Below are positions 8,126 to 35,820 of a stretch of 64,000 nt of DNA, one piece after another. Source of the stretch: Candidatus Kaiserbacteria bacterium. GTDB taxonomy: Bacteria > Patescibacteriota > Minisyncoccia > Phycocordibacterales > UBA918. Both the position numbers and the translations under genes were made by a program. The stretch is taken from contig JANPCG010000006.1 of NCBI GenBank assembly GCA_031430855.1, positions 2,531 through 66,530 of the forward strand. The letters are read 5' to 3'. The notes under the pieces were generated by a model, which was not told the origin of the DNA, made no database searches, and saw nothing but the letters and a program-made list of their open reading frames with translations. The number at the start of each line of letters is the position of its first letter. The stretch's first letter is position 1.

Positions 8126-10972
8126 ATGCATAAAAAATTTGATTCCACCCAGATTGAAAAGAAATGGCAAGAGCGATGGAAAGAAAGTGGAATCTATACC
8201 GTCGGAGAACGAGACGTAACAAAACCTAAAGAGTATGTCCTGGTTGAATGGCCGTACCCGTCAGGAAACCTCCACATTGGACACTGGTATGCCTTTGCCG
8301 TCCCTGATATCTATGCGCGCTTTAAGCGCATGAAGGGAACCCAGGTCTTATTTCCGATGGGTTTTGACGCCTTTGGACTCCCGGCAGAAAATGCGGCTAT
8401 TAAGCGCAATTTAGATCCTAAGGCGTGGACGAACGACAACATCGCCTACATGCGTGAACAACTCATTTCAATGGGCTGCAGTTTTTCCTGGGACAAAACC
8501 GCCAATTCGACTGATGCTGACTATTACAAATGGACCCAGTGGATGTTCACGCAGTTTTTTGAGCGGGGAATTGCGTATCGTGGTAAGGGAGTGGTTAATT
8601 GGTGTCCGGGATGTAACACAGTGATTGCAAACGAACAGGTACTAACTGACGGAACCTGTGAACGCTCAGGTGATGTGGTAGAGAAGCGAGAAATGCCGCA
8701 ATGGATGCTCAAGATTACAGAGTATGCTGACCGTCTGACTGATGACCTCAATGCGCTTGATTGGCCAGAACATATTAAAGAAGCCCAGCGGCAGTGGATC
8801 GGCCGCAGTCGCGGGGCGAAGATTGATTTTAAGCTTTCAACTGGTGACACTGTTACCGTATTTACTACTCGACCTGACACGTTATTCGGAGCAACATATG
8901 TTGTCCTTGCACCTGAACACCCACTTCTACAAAATGACAAGGTACGAGGCGAGACCTCGAACTTGACGGAGGTTAATAATTATATTACTACTGCGAAGCA
9001 AAAAGATGAACAAGATCGGCTCGATGCCACAAAAGAAAAGACTGGGGTAAAACTCGAAGGGATTACCGCTATTAATCCCGCGAGCGGGGAAGCGATTCCC
9101 GTCTACGTGGCCGACTATGTACTCGGCGGGTATGGCACCGGAGCCATTATGGCCGTACCAGCGCATGATGAACGAGACTATGCCTTTGCAACGAAGTTTG
9201 GGCTACCAATAAAACAAGTAGTTGTGCCGTGTGCTAATGATTCAAAAAACCCACCGCAGTCTGGGTATGAAGAAGTAAAACGAGATACTGTCATCATACA
9301 TCTACGCGACAAGAGTACCGGTAAATTTGCACTCTTAAATTGGCACGGTACTCTCGAAGGAATCACTACAGCAATTATGGGTGGTATTGAAGAAGGGCAA
9401 ACTCCAGAGGAAGCTGCGCTAGCGGAAATAAAAGAAGAAGCTGCTCTAGATAATGTAAAAATCGTTCATTCACTCAAATGGATTACCGCGGCAAAATATT
9501 GCGCCTCACATAAAAAACAAAATCGCTGTGCCCACACCTATACCTTTTTAGGTGAAGTAGAAAATCTCGAACAGCAGGGCTCTATTCCAGAAGCAGAAAA
9601 TTCTCTACATACGTTAGTCTGGGTAGAAAAGACTCAGGTTCTCGCTAAACTTACACCTGATCATCAAAAGCAGGTTTGGGAATTACTCCAAAAGGATACC
9701 GTTTTGACCGGAGCTGGCTATTTAATGAACTCAGGTGAATTTAATGGAATGGATTCAGACGAAGCGAAGGAAAAAATTGTTGCGCAAGTGGGAGGGGAAA
9801 TGACCTCAACCTATCGAATTCGTGATTGGTCAATTGGACGACAGCGATACTGGGGTGTTCCGATTCCAATTGTATATTCACCAGAAGGAGTAGCTCACAT
9901 TGTTCCTAAGGAACATTTGCCGTGGGTACTCCCCGAAGACGTCGATTTTAAACCGACCGGTGTCGCGCCACTCGCTAAAAGTGAAGCGCTAAGGAAACGA
10001 ACTGAGGAAATCTTTGGTGTTGGATGGACACCGGAAGTCGAAACCATGGATACGTTTGTCGATTCATCATGGTATTTCCTACGGTATCTTGATAACGCGA
10101 ATCCTGACTCTCTCTCATCGCTTGAAGCCCAAAAGAACTGGATGCCAATCGATATCTACTTTGGAGGGGCTGAACACACCACAATGCACTTACTCTACTC
10201 GCGCTTCTGGCAAAAGGCACTCTTTGACCTGGGGCTCGTGACTGAAACAGAACCCTATCGTCGACGAATTAACCGTGGACTCATCCTTGGGCCAGACGGA
10301 AACAAAATGAGCAAGAGCAAAGGCAACGTCATCGATCCTGATGCCCAGGTAGCTTTGGTCGGGTCAGACACGGTCAAAATGTACCTCGCCTTTATGGGAC
10401 CATACGAGGGAAGCAACTACCCGTTTGACCTCGGTGGAATTGCTGGTTTGCGTCGTTTCTTGGAGCGTGCGTACGGGCTACGTGATCATATTATCCCGAA
10501 TGAACCACTCACTGTCACCAAGCAACTCCACAAAACCATTGCCAAAGTAAACACTGATATTGTTGAATTTAAGTTCAATACGGCCATTAGTGCCATGATG
10601 ATATTTGTAAATCTCGCCGAAAAGGAAGGGTTAACCGAAGAAACTTACCGAATGTTTACACGACTTTTAGCACCATTTGCCCCGCATATTACTGAAGAAA
10701 TCTGGACTGAATTGGGGGAGACAACATCAATCCACTTAACGGAGTACCCGACGGCAAACCCGGAACTGGCACGCGATACTGAAGTTGTTATTGGAGTGCA
10801 AATTAACGGTAAATTACGAGGAGATATCACACTTAGCCCAAACGCAAGCGAAGCGGAAGCACTCAATATGGTAAAAGAAAATCCTGTTCTCAGGACCAGG
10901 CTAGAGGGAATCACACCGAATAAAGTCATCTACGTGCCCGGGAAAATCATCAACCTCATCCTTCCGACCTAG
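8126..10972 (+). CDS. leuS: Leucyl-tRNA synthetase with a roughly 160-aa Nudix-like insertion
   Basis: HIGH (NLHIGHWYAF) and KMSKS motifs; colinear with bacterial LeuRS except for extra sequence between ...KFGLPIKQVV and GAGYLMNSGEFNG. Confidence 0.95.
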   Translation: MHKKFDSTQIEKKWQERWKESGIYTVGERDVTKPKEYVLVEWPYPSGNLHIGHWYAFAVPDIYARFKRMKGTQVLFPMGFDAFGLPAENAAIKRNLDPKAWTNDNIAYMREQLISMGCSFSWDKTANSTDADYYKWTQWMFTQFFERGIAYRGKGVVNWCPGCNTVIANEQVLTDGTCERSGDVVEKREMPQWMLKITEYADRLTDDLNALDWPEHIKEAQRQWIGRSRGAKIDFKLSTGDTVTVFTTRPDTLFGATYVVLAPEHPLLQNDKVRGETSNLTEVNNYITTAKQKDEQDRLDATKEKTGVKLEGITAINPASGEAIPVYVADYVLGGYGTGAIMAVPAHDERDYAFATKFGLPIKQVVVPCANDSKNPPQSGYEEVKRDTVIIHLRDKSTGKFALLNWHGTLEGITTAIMGGIEEGQTPEEAALAEIKEEAALDNVKIVHSLKWITAAKYCASHKKQNRCAHTYTFLGEVENLEQQGSIPEAENSLHTLVWVEKTQVLAKLTPDHQKQVWELLQKDTVLTGAGYLMNSGEFNGMDSDEAKEKIVAQVGGEMTSTYRIRDWSIGRQRYWGVPIPIVYSPEGVAHIVPKEHLPWVLPEDVDFKPTGVAPLAKSEALRKRTEEIFGVGWTPEVETMDTFVDSSWYFLRYLDNANPDSLSSLEAQKNWMPIDIYFGGAEHTTMHLLYSRFWQKALFDLGLVTETEPYRRRINRGLILGPDGNKMSKSKGNVIDPDAQVALVGSDTVKMYLAFMGPYEGSNYPFDLGGIAGLRRFLERAYGLRDHIIPNEPLTVTKQLHKTIAKVNTDIVEFKFNTAISAMMIFVNLAEKEGLTEETYRMFTRLLAPFAPHITEEIWTELGETTSIHLTEYPTANPELARDTEVVIGVQINGKLRGDITLSPNASEAEALNMVKENPVLRTRLEGITPNKVIYVPGKIINLILPT

Positions 10973-11081: not shown

Positions 11082-12107
11082 ATGATTACGTTTAAACCAA
11101 AACAAGTAACCAAAAAACTTCTCTCTCAACTGCCAGAACGCGCACGTGATGTTCTCATCAAGCGCTACGGTCTTGGAGCTGATAATGAAACCTTCACCCT
11201 TGAAGCCATTGGACAATCATACGGGATCACTCGTGAGCGAGTTCGTCAGATCGAAAACTACGGTATTGCTTCAGTCCAGAAGTCACCTGTCTATGCGGAA
11301 CACGCAGAGTTATTTCTCGAGCTCCAGACTTTAATTCAACAAATGGGAGGTGGCGTCGTTGCTGAACACGTGCTTTTAGATAGTTTGGCGCCTGATGAAG
11401 CCACTCGAAATCATCTCTATTTCCTCCTCGTGGTAGGGGACGCTTTCTACAAAGGCAAGGAAAACCCACTCTATACCCACCGTTGGTTTACGGAAAAGAA
11501 AATTGCTGAAACAGTTGAAAAAGCTTTACGGAACGTTTACGGTACCCTCAATCGCGATGATTTGGTCAGTGAAGCTGAAATCCTCAATCGTTTCCGCACT
11601 GAATTGATTGAAGTGGCTGAAAAGCATGATGACGAGACTTTGAAGCGATGGCTCATGATCTCAAAGCAAATTGCCCAAAACCCACTCGGTGACTGGGGAC
11701 CAAGCGATAGTCCAAACGTGCGCGTGAAGGGAATTCGTGATTACGCATATCTCGCAGTAAAGCGCCATGGTTCACCAATGCACTTCAAAGAAGTATCCGA
11801 ATCAATCAAGGAGCTATTCAAGCATAAGGCACACGTCGCAACTACCCACAACGAACTTATCAAAGATGCCCGTTTTGTCCTCGTTGGTCGAGGTCTCTAC
11901 GCACTCACAGAGTGGGGCTACACGGCAGGTGTTGTCAAAGACGTCCTCCGCGAAATCCTCCAGAACGAAGGCCCCCTCTCACGCGAAGAATTGATTGATA
12001 AGGTACGTAAGGAACGATACGTAAAAGACAACACCATTGTGGTCAATCTCCAAGATACCAATCTCTTCAAGCGGCTCAGTAACGGTACTTACACCATCGC
12101 TGAATAA
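11082..12107 (+). CDS. Sigma-70 region-4-like HTH domain protein (non-canonical)
   Basis: N-terminal RDVLIKRYGL...TLEAIGQSYGITRERVRQIE is a textbook sigma region 4.2 HTH; the rest is unrelated to sigma regions 1-3. Confidence 0.7.
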   Translation: MITFKPKQVTKKLLSQLPERARDVLIKRYGLGADNETFTLEAIGQSYGITRERVRQIENYGIASVQKSPVYAEHAELFLELQTLIQQMGGGVVAEHVLLDSLAPDEATRNHLYFLLVVGDAFYKGKENPLYTHRWFTEKKIAETVEKALRNVYGTLNRDDLVSEAEILNRFRTELIEVAEKHDDETLKRWLMISKQIAQNPLGDWGPSDSPNVRVKGIRDYAYLAVKRHGSPMHFKEVSESIKELFKHKAHVATTHNELIKDARFVLVGRGLYALTEWGYTAGVVKDVLREILQNEGPLSREELIDKVRKERYVKDNTIVVNLQDTNLFKRLSNGTYTIAE

Positions 12108-21213: not shown

Positions 21214-23160
21214 ATGGGGGGAAATGACATTCGAGAAAAATATCTAGCTTTTATGGCCCAAAACGGCCACGCTATTATCCCGTCTGCGGCCCTTGTCCCC
21301 GAAAACGATCCAACCACCCTGTTTACCGGGAGTGGTATGCAGCCACTGATTCCATACCTAATGGGAGAACCACATCCAAAGGGGGTTCGTCTGACCGACT
21401 CCCAAAAGAGTTTCCGTGCGAACGACATCGAAGAAGTAGGGGACAATCGTCATACCACCTTCTTTGAAATGCTTGGTAACTGGTCTTTAGGTGACTACTT
21501 CAAAAAGGAACAGCTTCGATACTTTTTTTCATTTTTAGTTGATGAAGTCGGGCTTGATCCGGCACGAATTTACGTTACCGTGTTTGCTGGTGATGAATCA
21601 CTCGGTATTCCACGTGACGATGAATCGGTTGCCATCTGGAAAGAACTATTTGCTGAACGCGGCATTGAGGCCAAGGATGTCTTTATTGGAAGCGAAGAAG
21701 ACGGCTACCAAGTCGGAATGCAGGGTGGTCAGATTTTCTACTATGATGCAGCGAAGAACTGGTGGAGCCGCTCGGGTAAGCCTGCTAACATGCCCGCCGG
21801 GGAGATTGGCGGACCCGACAGTGAAGTGTTCTATGACTTTGGCCCAGAACATGCGACCCACCCAGTGTATGGAAGTCTAGCGGCGCACCCAAACAGCGAT
21901 TCCGGACAATTTCTTGAAATCGGTAACTCTGTGTTTATTGAGTACGTCAAACAACCTGATGGTTCATTTACGAAACTACCACAACGTAACGTGGACTTTG
22001 GTGGGGGACTCGAGCGTATTGCAGCCGCAAAAGTTGGTGACCCTGATGTATTTAAAGTTGACCTCTTAAAGACTGTTGTTAGTCAAATTGAAGACCTCTC
22101 AGATAAAAAATATGAAGATGAGCTCATTGCCTTCCGAGTGATTACTGACCACATACGCGGGGCAGTGTTCTTGATTGGTGATGGAGTACTGCCAGGTAAT
22201 TCAGATCAGGGATATTTCGTGCGTCGACTACTGAGGCGAGCTGTTCGTTATGCCGATAAAATCAATATTCCGGCTGGTAAATTCGCTCAGTTATCAGAAA
22301 GTGTGATTTCGACATACGAAGTGCACTACCGTAATTTAACTGAGAAGCGGACTGAAATCATTGAAGCAATCAGTAAAGAAGAGGAGCAATTCCGCAAGAC
22401 CCTTGAGAGTGGACTGAAGCAATTTAACAAAGTCTCGCTCCAGATTCATGTCAGCAGCACCGAAATAGACGGTAAAAAAGTCATTGATAAAAGCGTTAAC
22501 CCAATCACTAAACAAGCCATTAGTGCCCAAAATGCATTTGACCTCTACACCACTTACGGATTCCCGATTGAAGTAACTGAAGAAATTGCCGCCGAGAAGG
22601 GGCTTATCGTTGAGCGAGTAGGGTTTGAAAAACTGATGGAAGAGCACCGCAACCTCTCGCGCGCTGGAGCTGAACAGAAATTCAAAGGGGGACTAGCAGA
22701 CAATTCAGAGACGGTCGTACGTTACCACAGTGCAACCCACCTGATGCTCGCGGGACTCAGACAGATTTTAGGGACTCACGTCCACCAAGCCGGATCAAAC
22801 ATTACAGGCGAACGACTTCGTTACGACTTTACACATGGTGACAAAATGACACCGGAACAAATTGCTGCCGTTGAGGCGTTTGTAAACAACGCCATTAAAC
22901 AAGGTGGTGCGGTAACGATAGATATGATGGCAAAATCCGAAGCCGAAACCGACCCCACTATTGAAGCCAGTTTCTGGGACCGCTATCCAGACGAAGTAAA
23001 GGTCTATACCATGACGGGAACAGATGGAACAATTCTCTCACGCGAACTTTGTGGCGGTCCACATGTAGAAAAATTAGAGGATATCAATGGTACTTTTAAA
23101 ATTACGAAAGAAGAATCCTCTTCGGCGGGGGTACGACGCATCAAAGCAATCTTGGAATAA
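21214..23160 (+). CDS. alaS: Alanyl-tRNA synthetase, truncated form lacking the C-Ala domain
   Basis: Class II catalytic core; editing HxxxH (HSATHLMLAG); CGGPHV zinc motif. 648 aa versus about 875 aa typical. Confidence 0.9.
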   Translation: MGGNDIREKYLAFMAQNGHAIIPSAALVPENDPTTLFTGSGMQPLIPYLMGEPHPKGVRLTDSQKSFRANDIEEVGDNRHTTFFEMLGNWSLGDYFKKEQLRYFFSFLVDEVGLDPARIYVTVFAGDESLGIPRDDESVAIWKELFAERGIEAKDVFIGSEEDGYQVGMQGGQIFYYDAAKNWWSRSGKPANMPAGEIGGPDSEVFYDFGPEHATHPVYGSLAAHPNSDSGQFLEIGNSVFIEYVKQPDGSFTKLPQRNVDFGGGLERIAAAKVGDPDVFKVDLLKTVVSQIEDLSDKKYEDELIAFRVITDHIRGAVFLIGDGVLPGNSDQGYFVRRLLRRAVRYADKINIPAGKFAQLSESVISTYEVHYRNLTEKRTEIIEAISKEEEQFRKTLESGLKQFNKVSLQIHVSSTEIDGKKVIDKSVNPITKQAISAQNAFDLYTTYGFPIEVTEEIAAEKGLIVERVGFEKLMEEHRNLSRAGAEQKFKGGLADNSETVVRYHSATHLMLAGLRQILGTHVHQAGSNITGERLRYDFTHGDKMTPEQIAAVEAFVNNAIKQGGAVTIDMMAKSEAETDPTIEASFWDRYPDEVKVYTMTGTDGTILSRELCGGPHVEKLEDINGTFKITKEESSSAGVRRIKAILE

Positions 23161-35304: not shown

Positions 35305-35820
35305 ATGAAGCTACTTACTGAGCTTAGCGAGAAGTCATTAGGAATAAATCCTGAACAAAAAATAGTTGGCGAAACCTTTAAGTTGCGTAAAAGTGCCCGA
35401 GCCATTGTTATCAATCACGATGGCTTAATGGCCGTTCAGCACATACAAAAATATAATTATCACAAGCTCCCAGGCGGAACCATGGAAGAGGGAGAAGTGA
35501 TCGAAGAAACACTCCGAAGAGAAATCAGAGAAGAAATAGGATGTGAAATTGATTCAATAAAACCAGTAGGGATGATTATCGAGTATCAAAACGAATTAAT
35601 TCAAATTTCATATTGTTTTAGTGCCAATATGGCTAGTGAAATTAGTGAACAGAATTTTGATGAAGCTGAGATTGAAAACGACCAACGGACGATCTGGCTT
35701 AATCCAACCGACTGCCTCGACACTTTCAAACATGATTTAACTACAAAGAGAGAGGGTGATTTTATTATAGCGAGAGAAATTGCCTTCTTGTCCGAATTTT
35801 TAAATTTACAAAACAGTTAA
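35305..35820 (+). CDS. NUDIX hydrolase
   Basis: Nudix box GGTMEEGEVIEETLRREIREEIG. Confidence 0.85.
   Translation: MKLLTELSEKSLGINPEQKIVGETFKLRKSARAIVINHDGLMAVQHIQKYNYHKLPGGTMEEGEVIEETLRREIREEIGCEIDSIKPVGMIIEYQNELIQISYCFSANMASEISEQNFDEAEIENDQRTIWLNPTDCLDTFKHDLTTKREGDFIIAREIAFLSEFLNLQNS

Follow-up and report, generated by a model that had tools for sequence, protein, structure and literature searches.

A predicted Nudix-fold domain nested as an apparently exchangeable cassette in the CP1 editing domain of a Patescibacteria leucyl-tRNA synthetase

Few proteins are as conserved as the aminoacyl-tRNA synthetases (aaRS), which serve both as phylogenetic markers and as drug targets. Add-on domains are carried by eukaryotic aaRS, and the leucyl-tRNA synthetases (LeuRS) of archaea and eukaryotes have lineage-specific insertions in CP1, a known hot spot of such insertions. 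An extra globular domain on a canonical synthetase is also represented by the NCBIfam entry NF040702 ('isoleucine--tRNA ligase, N-acetyltransferase domain-containing'). The LeuRS described here shares this basic design, but its extra domain has a Nudix-type enzyme fold, is polymorphic between near-identical genes, and recurs among relatives at several sites, in several copies and with counterparts in ProRS. Known members of the Nudix superfamily (PF00293) are either free-standing or terminally fused, whereas the present one is nested within a domain of another enzyme. A literature search retrieved no paper describing a Nudix domain inside LeuRS, which agrees with the original prediction that such a module is undescribed at this position of an aaRS.

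The stretch of DNA analysed as a whole, referred to as the window, comprises 64,000 nucleotides and contains the LeuRS gene on the forward strand at 8126..10972 (948 aa plus stop), as identified from its open reading frame, TIGR00396 and Pfam. The gene product scores 873.8 bits against the NCBIfam model TIGR00396 and, like other bacterial LeuRS, exceeds the cut-off of 548.4 for a bacterial leucine--tRNA ligase equivalog. It has the same catalytic core, CP1 motifs, anticodon-binding and C-terminal domains as the CP1-containing LeuRS of E. coli (4aq7/4arc) and T. thermophilus (1h3n/2byt), and the domains tRNA-synt_1, LeuRS editing domain (PF13603, 207 bits) and Anticodon_1 are recognised by Pfam. 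The HIGH (aa 50-53) and KMSKS (aa 727-731) motifs are invariant among the relatives in alignment A4, and so are TTRPDT (aa 247-252) and HDERD (aa 347-351) of the CP1 editing domain, including the residues T247, T248, R249, T252, H347, D348, R350, and D351. As judged from these residues, the editing site is intact. The full-length AF2 model of the protein reached a pLDDT of 88.2 and a pTM of 0.78. In relatives, the locus is syntenic in the order DUF5671, LeuRS, Sigma70_r4/HARE-HTH, DUF8128 and YceG, and the neighbours of the LeuRS gene are housekeeping genes.

The insert occupies positions 9227..9709 on the forward strand (aa 368-528) and divides the CP1 editing domain into two parts. The pre-insert part (8789..9226, forward strand; aa 222-367; PF13603) aligns with residues 220-363 of T. 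thermophilus LeuRS, and the post-insert part (9710..9820, forward strand; GAGYLMNSGEFNG...RIRDW) with residues 380-439. The latter is also the putative right-hand conserved flank for cassette exchange, and DNA identity between relatives resumes there. Since the T. thermophilus enzyme (1h3n/2v0c) can be aligned as far as ...FGLPIKKVI(363) and then again from PGIMVNSG(380) onwards, a CP1 loop of 16 residues (364-379) in the solved LeuRS is replaced by a Nudix domain of 161 residues in the window protein; close relatives without the insert have 14-42 residues at the same position. The PF13603 match covers aa 222-375, corresponding to model positions 1-149 of 185, and breaks at position 149, the exact start of the insert. 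When the DNA is compared with that of a syntenic relative, the two sequences diverge at about 9225-9730 of the window, in agreement with the boundaries of 9227-9709 and the size of about 160 residues at a short-loop site that had originally been proposed.

The assignment of the insert to the Nudix superfamily, which was likewise part of the original prediction, is borne out by profile search and by structure prediction. PF00293 matches residues 388-515 with 36.9 bits in the context of the full protein, and the isolated insert reaches 41.1 bits (E 2.2e-10), both against a gathering score of 21.1. The AF2 model of the insert alone shows an alpha/beta/alpha sandwich with a loop-helix-loop motif, a fold that is entirely Nudix, at a pLDDT of 93.9, and the same region reaches 88-96 within the full-length model. 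As modelled, residues 368-528 thus represent a genuine, independently folding Nudix-fold domain nested in a CP1 surface loop of a complete LeuRS from Patescibacteria (CPR). The insert resembles other members of the superfamily in its size of about 150 aa, in the first Gly and the three glutamates of its loop-helix-loop box, and in a conserved downstream Glu, while it differs by a clade signature of its own (Y/F-x4-K-x2-N-R and a Trp). In searches with curated models of Nudix subfamilies (RppH, MutT, NudB, NudC, ADPRase, and others), it remained far below every cut-off.

The variant Nudix box, GGIEEGQTPEEAALAEIKEEAAL, is located at 9380..9448 on the forward strand, correcting the earlier assignment to nt 9381-9449. 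Its first Gly and all three glutamates of the REUXEE motif are retained, but it reads G-x5-Q-x7-A-E-I-x-E-E-x-A-L and deviates from the strict consensus GX5EX7REUXEEXGU at three of nine specified positions (Glu to Gln, Arg to Ala, and Gly to Ala). These three positions are replaced throughout the clade of the window protein, whereas most LeuRS-embedded relatives of the larger Nudix clade do possess a strictly canonical box. The metal ligands described for Nudix enzymes are the Gly that opens the box, the glutamates within it, and a Glu or Gln remote from it (PMC5424795). Across the insert subtypes, G53, E68, E71, K97, and W133 are invariant and E72, E125, R20, and N100 nearly so (numbering of alignment A5), and the window allele keeps all residues aligned with the putative metal ligands (G53, E68, E71, E72, and E125), of which the conserved downstream E125 is taken to be the remote one. 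Between the box and E125 lie a Tyr at a distance of 17 residues from the box and then the clade signature HKKQNR (9509..9526, forward strand), in which Lys and Asn are invariant or nearly so and Arg is nearly invariant (columns K96, N99, and R100 in alignment A2; K97 and N100 in A5); the same type of motif is present in the Nudix copies embedded in ProRS. Note that the Glu and Arg positions of the box co-vary across the family, with 174 sequences of the E/R type, 67 of the Q/non-R type and only 9 mixed ones, which looks like the replacement of a residue pair rather than decay. The window insert belongs to the Q/non-R subtype, which is also known from free-standing proteins.

A view on the distribution of related sequences shows that the insert belongs to a distinct Nudix clade, as defined by the apparent succession of Nudix box, Y/F-x4-K-x2-N-R motif and conserved Trp. 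A word-index search with the insert yielded only three fragments. In an exhaustive search, about 100 of the best 150 matches to the insert were LeuRS, and a recognisable Nudix box was present in 112 of the 120 best LeuRS relatives, nearly all of which also carry a precomputed PF00293 hit. A Nudix domain occurs at this site in more than 100 independent LeuRS of CPR bacteria, and most clade relatives detectable by exhaustive search are embedded in aaRS. Members of the clade are found at no fewer than four LeuRS sites (around residues 210, 242, 367, and 460), and a single protein may hold as many as three of them (Pfam recognises three NUDIX stretches each in P0006 and P0008). They also occur in ProRS, for which the closest named relatives come from DPANN archaea. 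In addition, free-standing homologues exist, and some LeuRS loops of the relatives hold Ham1, HAD, or alpha/beta-hydrolase (Ser_hydrolase) inserts or a second Nudix domain. The suggestion of a lineage-specific decoration therefore holds with regard to lineage, as the relatives with the insert are CPR LeuRS, but is incomplete, because the insert behaves as a cassette that can be exchanged at a hot spot and is one of several hydrolase inserts in these enzymes. Another Nudix gene reported for the window, the free-standing one at 35305-35820, is confirmed by PF00293 (49.6 bits); with 28% identity over 68 aa, it is not the source of the insert, and a recent duplication of this gene was rejected. 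A further match, a 4818-aa repeated type III polyketide synthase (P0026), is unrelated.

The cassette-like behaviour of the insert is apparent from LeuRS pairs that are nearly identical in the remaining protein. Pairwise identities of body and insert were used for this comparison, as single-linkage typing of the inserts at 38% identity had chained most subtypes together. In three pairs, 97.9, 97.7, and 95.5% identity of the LeuRS body contrast with only 28, 32, and 25% identity of the inserts, and in another pair (96.6% body identity), one protein carries the insert and the other does not. At the DNA level, identity amounts to 98-100% up to about nt 1080 of the gene and again from about nt 1660, but only to about 50% in between; the insert-less allele has an unrelated loop of 31 aa at the same locus. 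LeuRS genes that otherwise share 95-98% identity may therefore contain Nudix subtypes unrelated to each other, two domains in tandem, or just a short loop, which by sequence comparison marks the insert as an exchangeable cassette. The exchange apparently took place by recombination inside two conserved flanking segments, ...GLPIKQV[VI] and G-x-G-x-L-x-NSGEF. Because alleles without the insert exist at 96.6% body identity, the domain is dispensable for LeuRS function. The arrangement is reminiscent of hypervariable regions with recombining ends as in flagellin, where conserved flanks likewise surround a replaceable middle part and permit homologous recombination between alleles. In both cases this middle part may encode an enzyme, as the hypervariable domain of flagellin holds an enzyme domain ('flagellinolysin') in some clostridia. 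However, flagellin is a surface structure, whereas LeuRS is an essential cytoplasmic enzyme, for which no antigenic selection is expected.

Within a subtype, the insert is well conserved. Among window-type inserts, identities of insert and LeuRS body run in parallel within the clade (80/80 and 81/79%), and in distant hosts the insert is even more conserved than the body (70 versus 48, 66 versus 55, and 63 versus 45%). The dN of the insert is also lower than that of the LeuRS body, a comparison limited to dN and given without omega values because dS was saturated in the available pairs.

The best overall explanation of these features is a real Nudix cassette in LeuRS that most likely acts as an Mg2+-dependent pyrophosphohydrolase, or at least as a nucleotide-binding unit, a reading to which we assign a probability of roughly 0.5. 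Likely substrates would be dinucleoside polyphosphates or related NDP-X compounds such as arise as by-products of aminoacyl-adenylate chemistry, and the Nudix activity would be physically attached, in cis, to the synthetase, whose aminoacylation and editing functions presumably remain unchanged. The diversity of alleles suggests that different cassettes might confer different substrate ranges in the manner of accessory genes. The proposal that the domain may sense or act on Ap4A-type nucleotides gains modest support from structural neighbours. Besides the MutT/nudix protein of E. faecalis (2azw), the nearest solved structures include the diadenosine polyphosphatase Rv2985 of M. tuberculosis and the Ap6A hydrolase Ndx1 of T. 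thermophilus, and there are profile matches to the Ap4A hydrolases 1f3y and 3i7u. A Tyr about 17 residues after the box, reportedly identified in 1999 by Dunn and co-workers as a marker of ApnA hydrolases, is present as well. However, the structural neighbours also include the decapping enzymes AvrM14 and RppH as well as NudB and NUDT15, which leaves several candidate substrate classes. LeuRS is a poor producer of Ap4A compared to LysRS or PheRS. The Nudix clade may be functionally coupled to adenylate chemistry, and if the domain does degrade Ap4A-type products in cis, this would be the first case in which an aaRS is physically linked to the enzyme that clears its own alarmone by-products.

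A less likely alternative regards the domain as a passenger or nested accessory gene, i.e., a common house-cleaning hydrolase that is functionally independent of leucylation and resides in LeuRS because its loops are permissive. The conserved flanks of an essential and constitutive gene would then provide both expression and homology arms for transformation or recombination in organisms with few promoters. This is consistent with the insertions at many LeuRS sites, with the free-standing homologues of the clade, and with the accessory-gene pattern by which presence, absence and subtype differ among near-identical LeuRS. The unrelated small-molecule hydrolases in neighbouring loops (Ser_hydrolase, HAD, Ham1, or a second Nudix domain) are explained by a merely permissive carrier no less well than by a specific link to adenylate chemistry. 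On the other hand, the multi-domain hosts retrieved by the exhaustive search are almost exclusively aaRS, namely LeuRS and, in a different domain of life, ProRS, an outcome not expected for a neutral carrier, and the conservation of the window subtype above the level of the LeuRS body in distant hosts points in the same direction.

The original prediction had suggested a possible binding rather than catalytic module, and a corresponding model, in which a pseudo-Nudix domain of the Q/non-R type binds a nucleotide or the acceptor/5' end of tRNA and regulates or assists either LeuRS or a canonical Nudix partner, is regarded as unlikely. In its favour, three box residues, Glu(x5), Arg, and Gly, are replaced throughout the window clade, and so speaks the occurrence of Q/non-R domains beside a canonical copy, in tandem, in P0006, P0008, and P0013 as well as in the window relatives P0157, P0158, and P0163. 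The window domain, however, stands alone without a canonical partner and strictly keeps the initial Gly, the three glutamates of the REUXEE motif and the downstream E125. Moreover, the Glu and Arg were lost jointly as a co-varying pair (174/67/9) and not by scattered decay, dN is below that of the LeuRS body, and most inserts of the clade are canonical, so that a function in binding only is not supported. Since the box Glu and Arg absent from the window allele are present in nearly all characterised Nudix hydrolases, this particular allele may still be weakly active or inactive within the preferred reading of a Mg2+-dependent pyrophosphohydrolase or nucleotide-binding cassette.

It is considerably less probable that the cassette is a conflict module under diversifying or frequency-dependent selection, which neutralises nucleotide-like toxins or signals such as adenylate-mimicking antibiotics directed against LeuRS or nucleotide messengers of phage and host. 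Such a role would explain the many alleles at the hot spot and agree with their sharp replacement in genes of 95-98% identity while several subtypes persist, and LeuRS is indeed a target of the adenylate-mimic toxins agrocin 84/TM84 (PMC5059758). Against it stand the housekeeping neighbours of the LeuRS gene, the slow evolution of the domain within a subtype, and a PADLOC-DB search in which the window insert matched no known defence protein; other insert subtypes gave weak matches (21-40 bits) to the candidate Nudix model PDC-S07, which reflect generic Nudix similarity.

The plasticity observed here is unexpected for a core gene: the proofreading domain of an essential LeuRS contains a second, complete enzyme fold, which is swapped between genes with 98-100% identical flanking DNA. 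It is also relevant wherever CPR phylogenies rely on LeuRS as a marker. Tentatively, though with some caution, the essential aaRS genes of ultra-small symbionts, namely CPR (and for ProRS apparently DPANN), may be regarded as recombination-anchored landing pads for Nudix, Ham1, HAD, and alpha/beta-hydrolase cassettes, which would provide nucleotide and metabolite hygiene at strain level and constitute a new organisation of the accessory genome. CPR and DPANN organisms depend on salvaged nucleotides, and the finding offers a route into their poorly understood nucleotide housekeeping. Natural pairs of alleles with and without the insert (e.g., P0154 and P0221) represent ready-made controls for experiments.

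An assembly artefact (frameshift, chimeric join or mis-assembly at 9220-9710), suggested only by a slight dip in GC content of the insert (0.41-0.43 versus about 0.47 in the flanks), is virtually ruled out by the continuous reading frame, the confident folding of the Nudix region in the full-length AF2 model and the same architecture in more than 100 homologues from NCBI, JGI, ENA, and Logan, and was thus dispelled as an objection to the original prediction. An intein or homing element was rejected as well, since Pfam recognises only NUDIX and no Hint or endonuclease domain in the insert; boundary repeats were not found around it. An Rfam scan of the window detected no RNA family, so no RNA element appears to be involved. 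Also against an artefact, the protein P0153, which is identical to the window LeuRS over its full length (100% in BLASTP), has been recorded both at NCBI and in Logan, while two ENA members belong to its 90% cluster. Many of the Nudix-bearing LeuRS are named merely 'class I tRNA ligase family protein' by NCBI, a downgrading attributable to the insert.

The LeuRS gene of the window (8126-10972, + strand, 948 amino acids) encodes a complete enzyme, which reaches 873.8 bits against the bacterial LeuRS equivalog TIGR00396 (cut-off 548.4), with a Nudix-fold domain embedded in its CP1 domain. The LeuRS editing domain of Pfam (PF13603) covers residues 222-375, stopping at model position 149 of 185, and PF00293 (NUDIX) lies at residues 388-515. 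An alignment with the LeuRS of T. thermophilus (1h3n/2v0c) runs to FGLPIKKVI(363) and picks up again at PGIMVNSG(380), so that the 16-residue CP1 loop of the solved LeuRS corresponds to 161 residues here. Translated alone, nt 9227-9709 match PF00293 with 41.1 bits (E 2.2e-10; gathering score 21.1), which bears out the original prediction of a Nudix fold inside this synthetase, as does the AlphaFold2 model from an alignment of 35 inserts (pLDDT 93.9, pTM 0.87) with its Nudix order of strands and helices; the full-length LeuRS model (pLDDT 88.2, pTM 0.78) attains 88-96 in the insert region. Structural neighbours further down the ranking include DIPP1, RppH, NudB and Ap4A hydrolases, and the clade profile matches AvrM14, lupin Ap4A hydrolase, NUDT12 and NudC by sequence, while none of the curated Nudix subfamily models tested matched the insert at its cut-off. 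The free-standing Nudix gene proposed at 35305-35820 (+ strand, 171 amino acids) is also genuine (PF00293, 49.6 bits) and has a canonical-looking box, GTMEEGEVIEETLRREIREEIG. Its kinship to the insert is distant (28% identity over 68 amino acids), which leaves the genome with two or more unrelated Nudix proteins.

An exhaustive phmmer search with the insert against 1.84 billion representatives gave 170 matches at E<=1e-3, and about 100 of the best 150 are LeuRS or LeuRS fragments; the domain is embedded in LeuRS of related genomes, and free-standing copies exist too. The Nudix clade is strongly associated with aaRS. In the numbering of the window LeuRS with the insert removed, the four sites among the matches listed are ~367, the window's own (85 cases), ~210, often with a tandem pair (12), ~242 (4) and ~457-475 (2). 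Pfam recognizes three NUDIX stretches in each of the related proteins P0006 and P0008 and two in P0005 and P0018. Outside the box, a Lys is invariant across the clade, an Asn invariant or nearly so and an Arg mostly conserved (HK-x2-NR); a Trp and a downstream Glu are shared as well. The same clade and motif occur in a ProRS (P0091) and four relatives (P0275-P0278; 641-674 amino acids for the set), between the anticodon-binding and C-terminal domains. Among the closest relatives of these ProRS, which bear the names Nanoarchaeota or Woesearchaeota (DPANN archaea), most have no insert; those without Nudix are 72-80% identical over the aligned part. With 38-69% identity, the ProRS inserts are more variable than the ProRS body (73-77%).

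A recognizable Nudix box is present in 112 of the 120 best LeuRS relatives, which have 65-80% overall identity, and a precomputed PF00293 match in nearly all; the named hosts are Patescibacteria, Paceibacteria or Parcubacteria, and the proteins are frequently annotated merely as 'class I tRNA ligase family protein'. Relatives embedded in LeuRS also came from a scan of the species representatives of GTDB, in MAGs that bear the labels Kaiserbacteria, Saccharibacteria, Moranbacteria, Adlerbacteria, Taylorbacteria and Falkowbacteria. Nudix-bearing LeuRS with the same site also occur at loci from MAGs labelled Bacilli (L014, L015) and Gammaproteobacteria (L007), whose titles are not Patescibacteria; this may reflect mislabelled or contaminated bins, or a true spread beyond CPR.

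When body and insert of each LeuRS are compared separately, the insert proves to be exchanged like a cassette. Body identities of 97.9% (P0229/P0194), 97.7% (P0219/P0156) and 95.5% (P0252/P0248) go with insert identities of 28, 32 and 25%, and P0221, whose body is 96.6% identical to that of P0154, has no insert. P0154 and P0221 occupy one syntenic locus, whose flanks are ~93% identical, and an unrelated 31-amino-acid loop replaces the Nudix domain in P0221. In the DNA of P0156 and P0219, identity is 98-100% for gene nt 1-1080, drops to ~50%, and is back at 98-100% from ~1660 to the end; the window and its closest body (P0171/L087, 86%) are ~80% identical, but only ~50% at 9225-9730. Inserts of the same subtype keep pace with the body (94.6/91.9, 91.0/91.4; window versus P0154, 80/80), and in distant hosts window-type inserts are even closer than the bodies (70 versus 48%, 66 versus 55%, 63 versus 45% and 60 versus 45%). 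The dN of the insert is below that of the LeuRS body; dS is saturated and gives no omega for the insert. LeuRS without insert fall into several separate parts of the neighbour-joining tree. Taken together, the identity splits, DNA breakpoints and insert conservation indicate that there are long-lived, selected Nudix subtypes, that recombination in the conserved flanks ...GLPIKQV[VI] and G-x-G-x-L-x-NSGEF carries them from one LeuRS background to another, and that gain, loss or replacement of the insert has happened repeatedly. Both Nudix hydrolases and aaRS that carry accessory domains are known kinds; the most unexpected element is the cassette behaviour within an essential synthetase. A full-text literature search found no description of a LeuRS, or of any CPR aaRS, with a Nudix domain inside; the architecture is visible through Pfam matches already in databases, yet undescribed as far as we found.

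The Nudix box of the window, predicted correctly except for a one-base offset, lies at 9380-9448 (+ strand) and reads G-x5-Q-x7-A-E-I-x-E-E-x-A-L. A count over 269 boxes shows the Arg to vary jointly with the Glu that follows Gx5 (E/R 174, Q/non-R 67, E/non-R 5, Q/R 4); because the sequences are related, a Fisher P cannot be read as a real probability. No subtype has lost the initial Gly, the three glutamates or the downstream Glu; their counterparts are metal ligands of Nudix enzymes (PMC5424795), and the putative ligands are retained in the window insert. The Q/non-R subtype also occurs in free-standing forms and often adjoins a canonical copy in tandem arrangements; it is therefore a conserved type rather than a decaying relic. 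Where two Nudix domains adjoin (P0006, P0008, P0009 and P0013 at ~210; P0157, P0158 and P0163 at ~367/537), one is usually canonical (E/R) and the other often Q/non-R, which hints at a heterodimer-like pair of active and variant subunit. The window-type subtype further shows a Cys-x2-His...Cys-x-His pattern around the K-x2-NR motif (9497-9535, insert residues YCASHKKQNRCAH), with the first Cys and the His nearly fixed and the second Cys variable (C/T/R/H); the pattern may mark a metal site or have arisen by coincidence.

We prefer, with a probability of about 0.3, to read the insert as a Mg2+-dependent pyrophosphohydrolase for dinucleoside polyphosphates or related NDP-X, a putative hydrolase tethered to an enzyme class producing such compounds as side products, in which different cassettes would confer different specificities. 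Other hydrolases are inserted in CPR LeuRS as well. A second, canonical Nudix follows ~10 residues downstream of the first or in tandem in 8 of the 120 relatives, and Ser_hydrolase or alpha/beta-hydrolase (P0166 at ~242; P0004 at ~424-432), Ham1 (ITPase-like, P0223; P0078, 197 bits; P0116) and HAD phosphatase domains (P0007, P0048) occupy ~237-242, ~424-432, ~457-475 and ~634 in insert-free window numbering, sometimes accompanying Nudix in one LeuRS of up to 1330 amino acids; two more inserts of ~190 amino acids (P0109, P0132) matched no Pfam family. The HAD, Ham1 and alpha/beta-hydrolase inserts favour a passenger house-cleaning enzyme with LeuRS as carrier and recombination anchor, an equally tentative reading. 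A non-catalytic binding or partner module is slightly less likely, and a conflict-related module improbable, the window insert being without PADLOC match. An assembly artefact is ruled out for practical purposes by the frame running uninterrupted through the insert, by P0153, which is 100% identical by BLASTP over the full length (NCBI and Logan sources; two ENA members in its 90% cluster), and by the recurrence of the box among the best relatives; boundary repeats at the insert edges were looked for, and none was found.

The window and its relatives share a neighbourhood of DUF5671, LeuRS, Sigma70_r4/HARE-HTH, DUF8128, YceG, MnmA and an ATP-cone protein. The Sigma70 region 4/HARE-HTH protein (341 amino acids, 11082-12107, + strand) directly follows LeuRS and is found there in every syntenic relative examined (L082, L084, L085, L086). 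An Rfam scan of the whole 64 kb (1-64000) found no family at the gathering score, and no tRNA, rRNA or riboswitch match. The AlaRS at 21214-23160 (+ strand) has only 648 amino acids (tRNA-synt_2c and tRNA_SAD) and apparently lacks the C-terminal region, the E. coli enzyme being much longer (~875 amino acids); the same genome thus combines an enlarged LeuRS with a shortened AlaRS.
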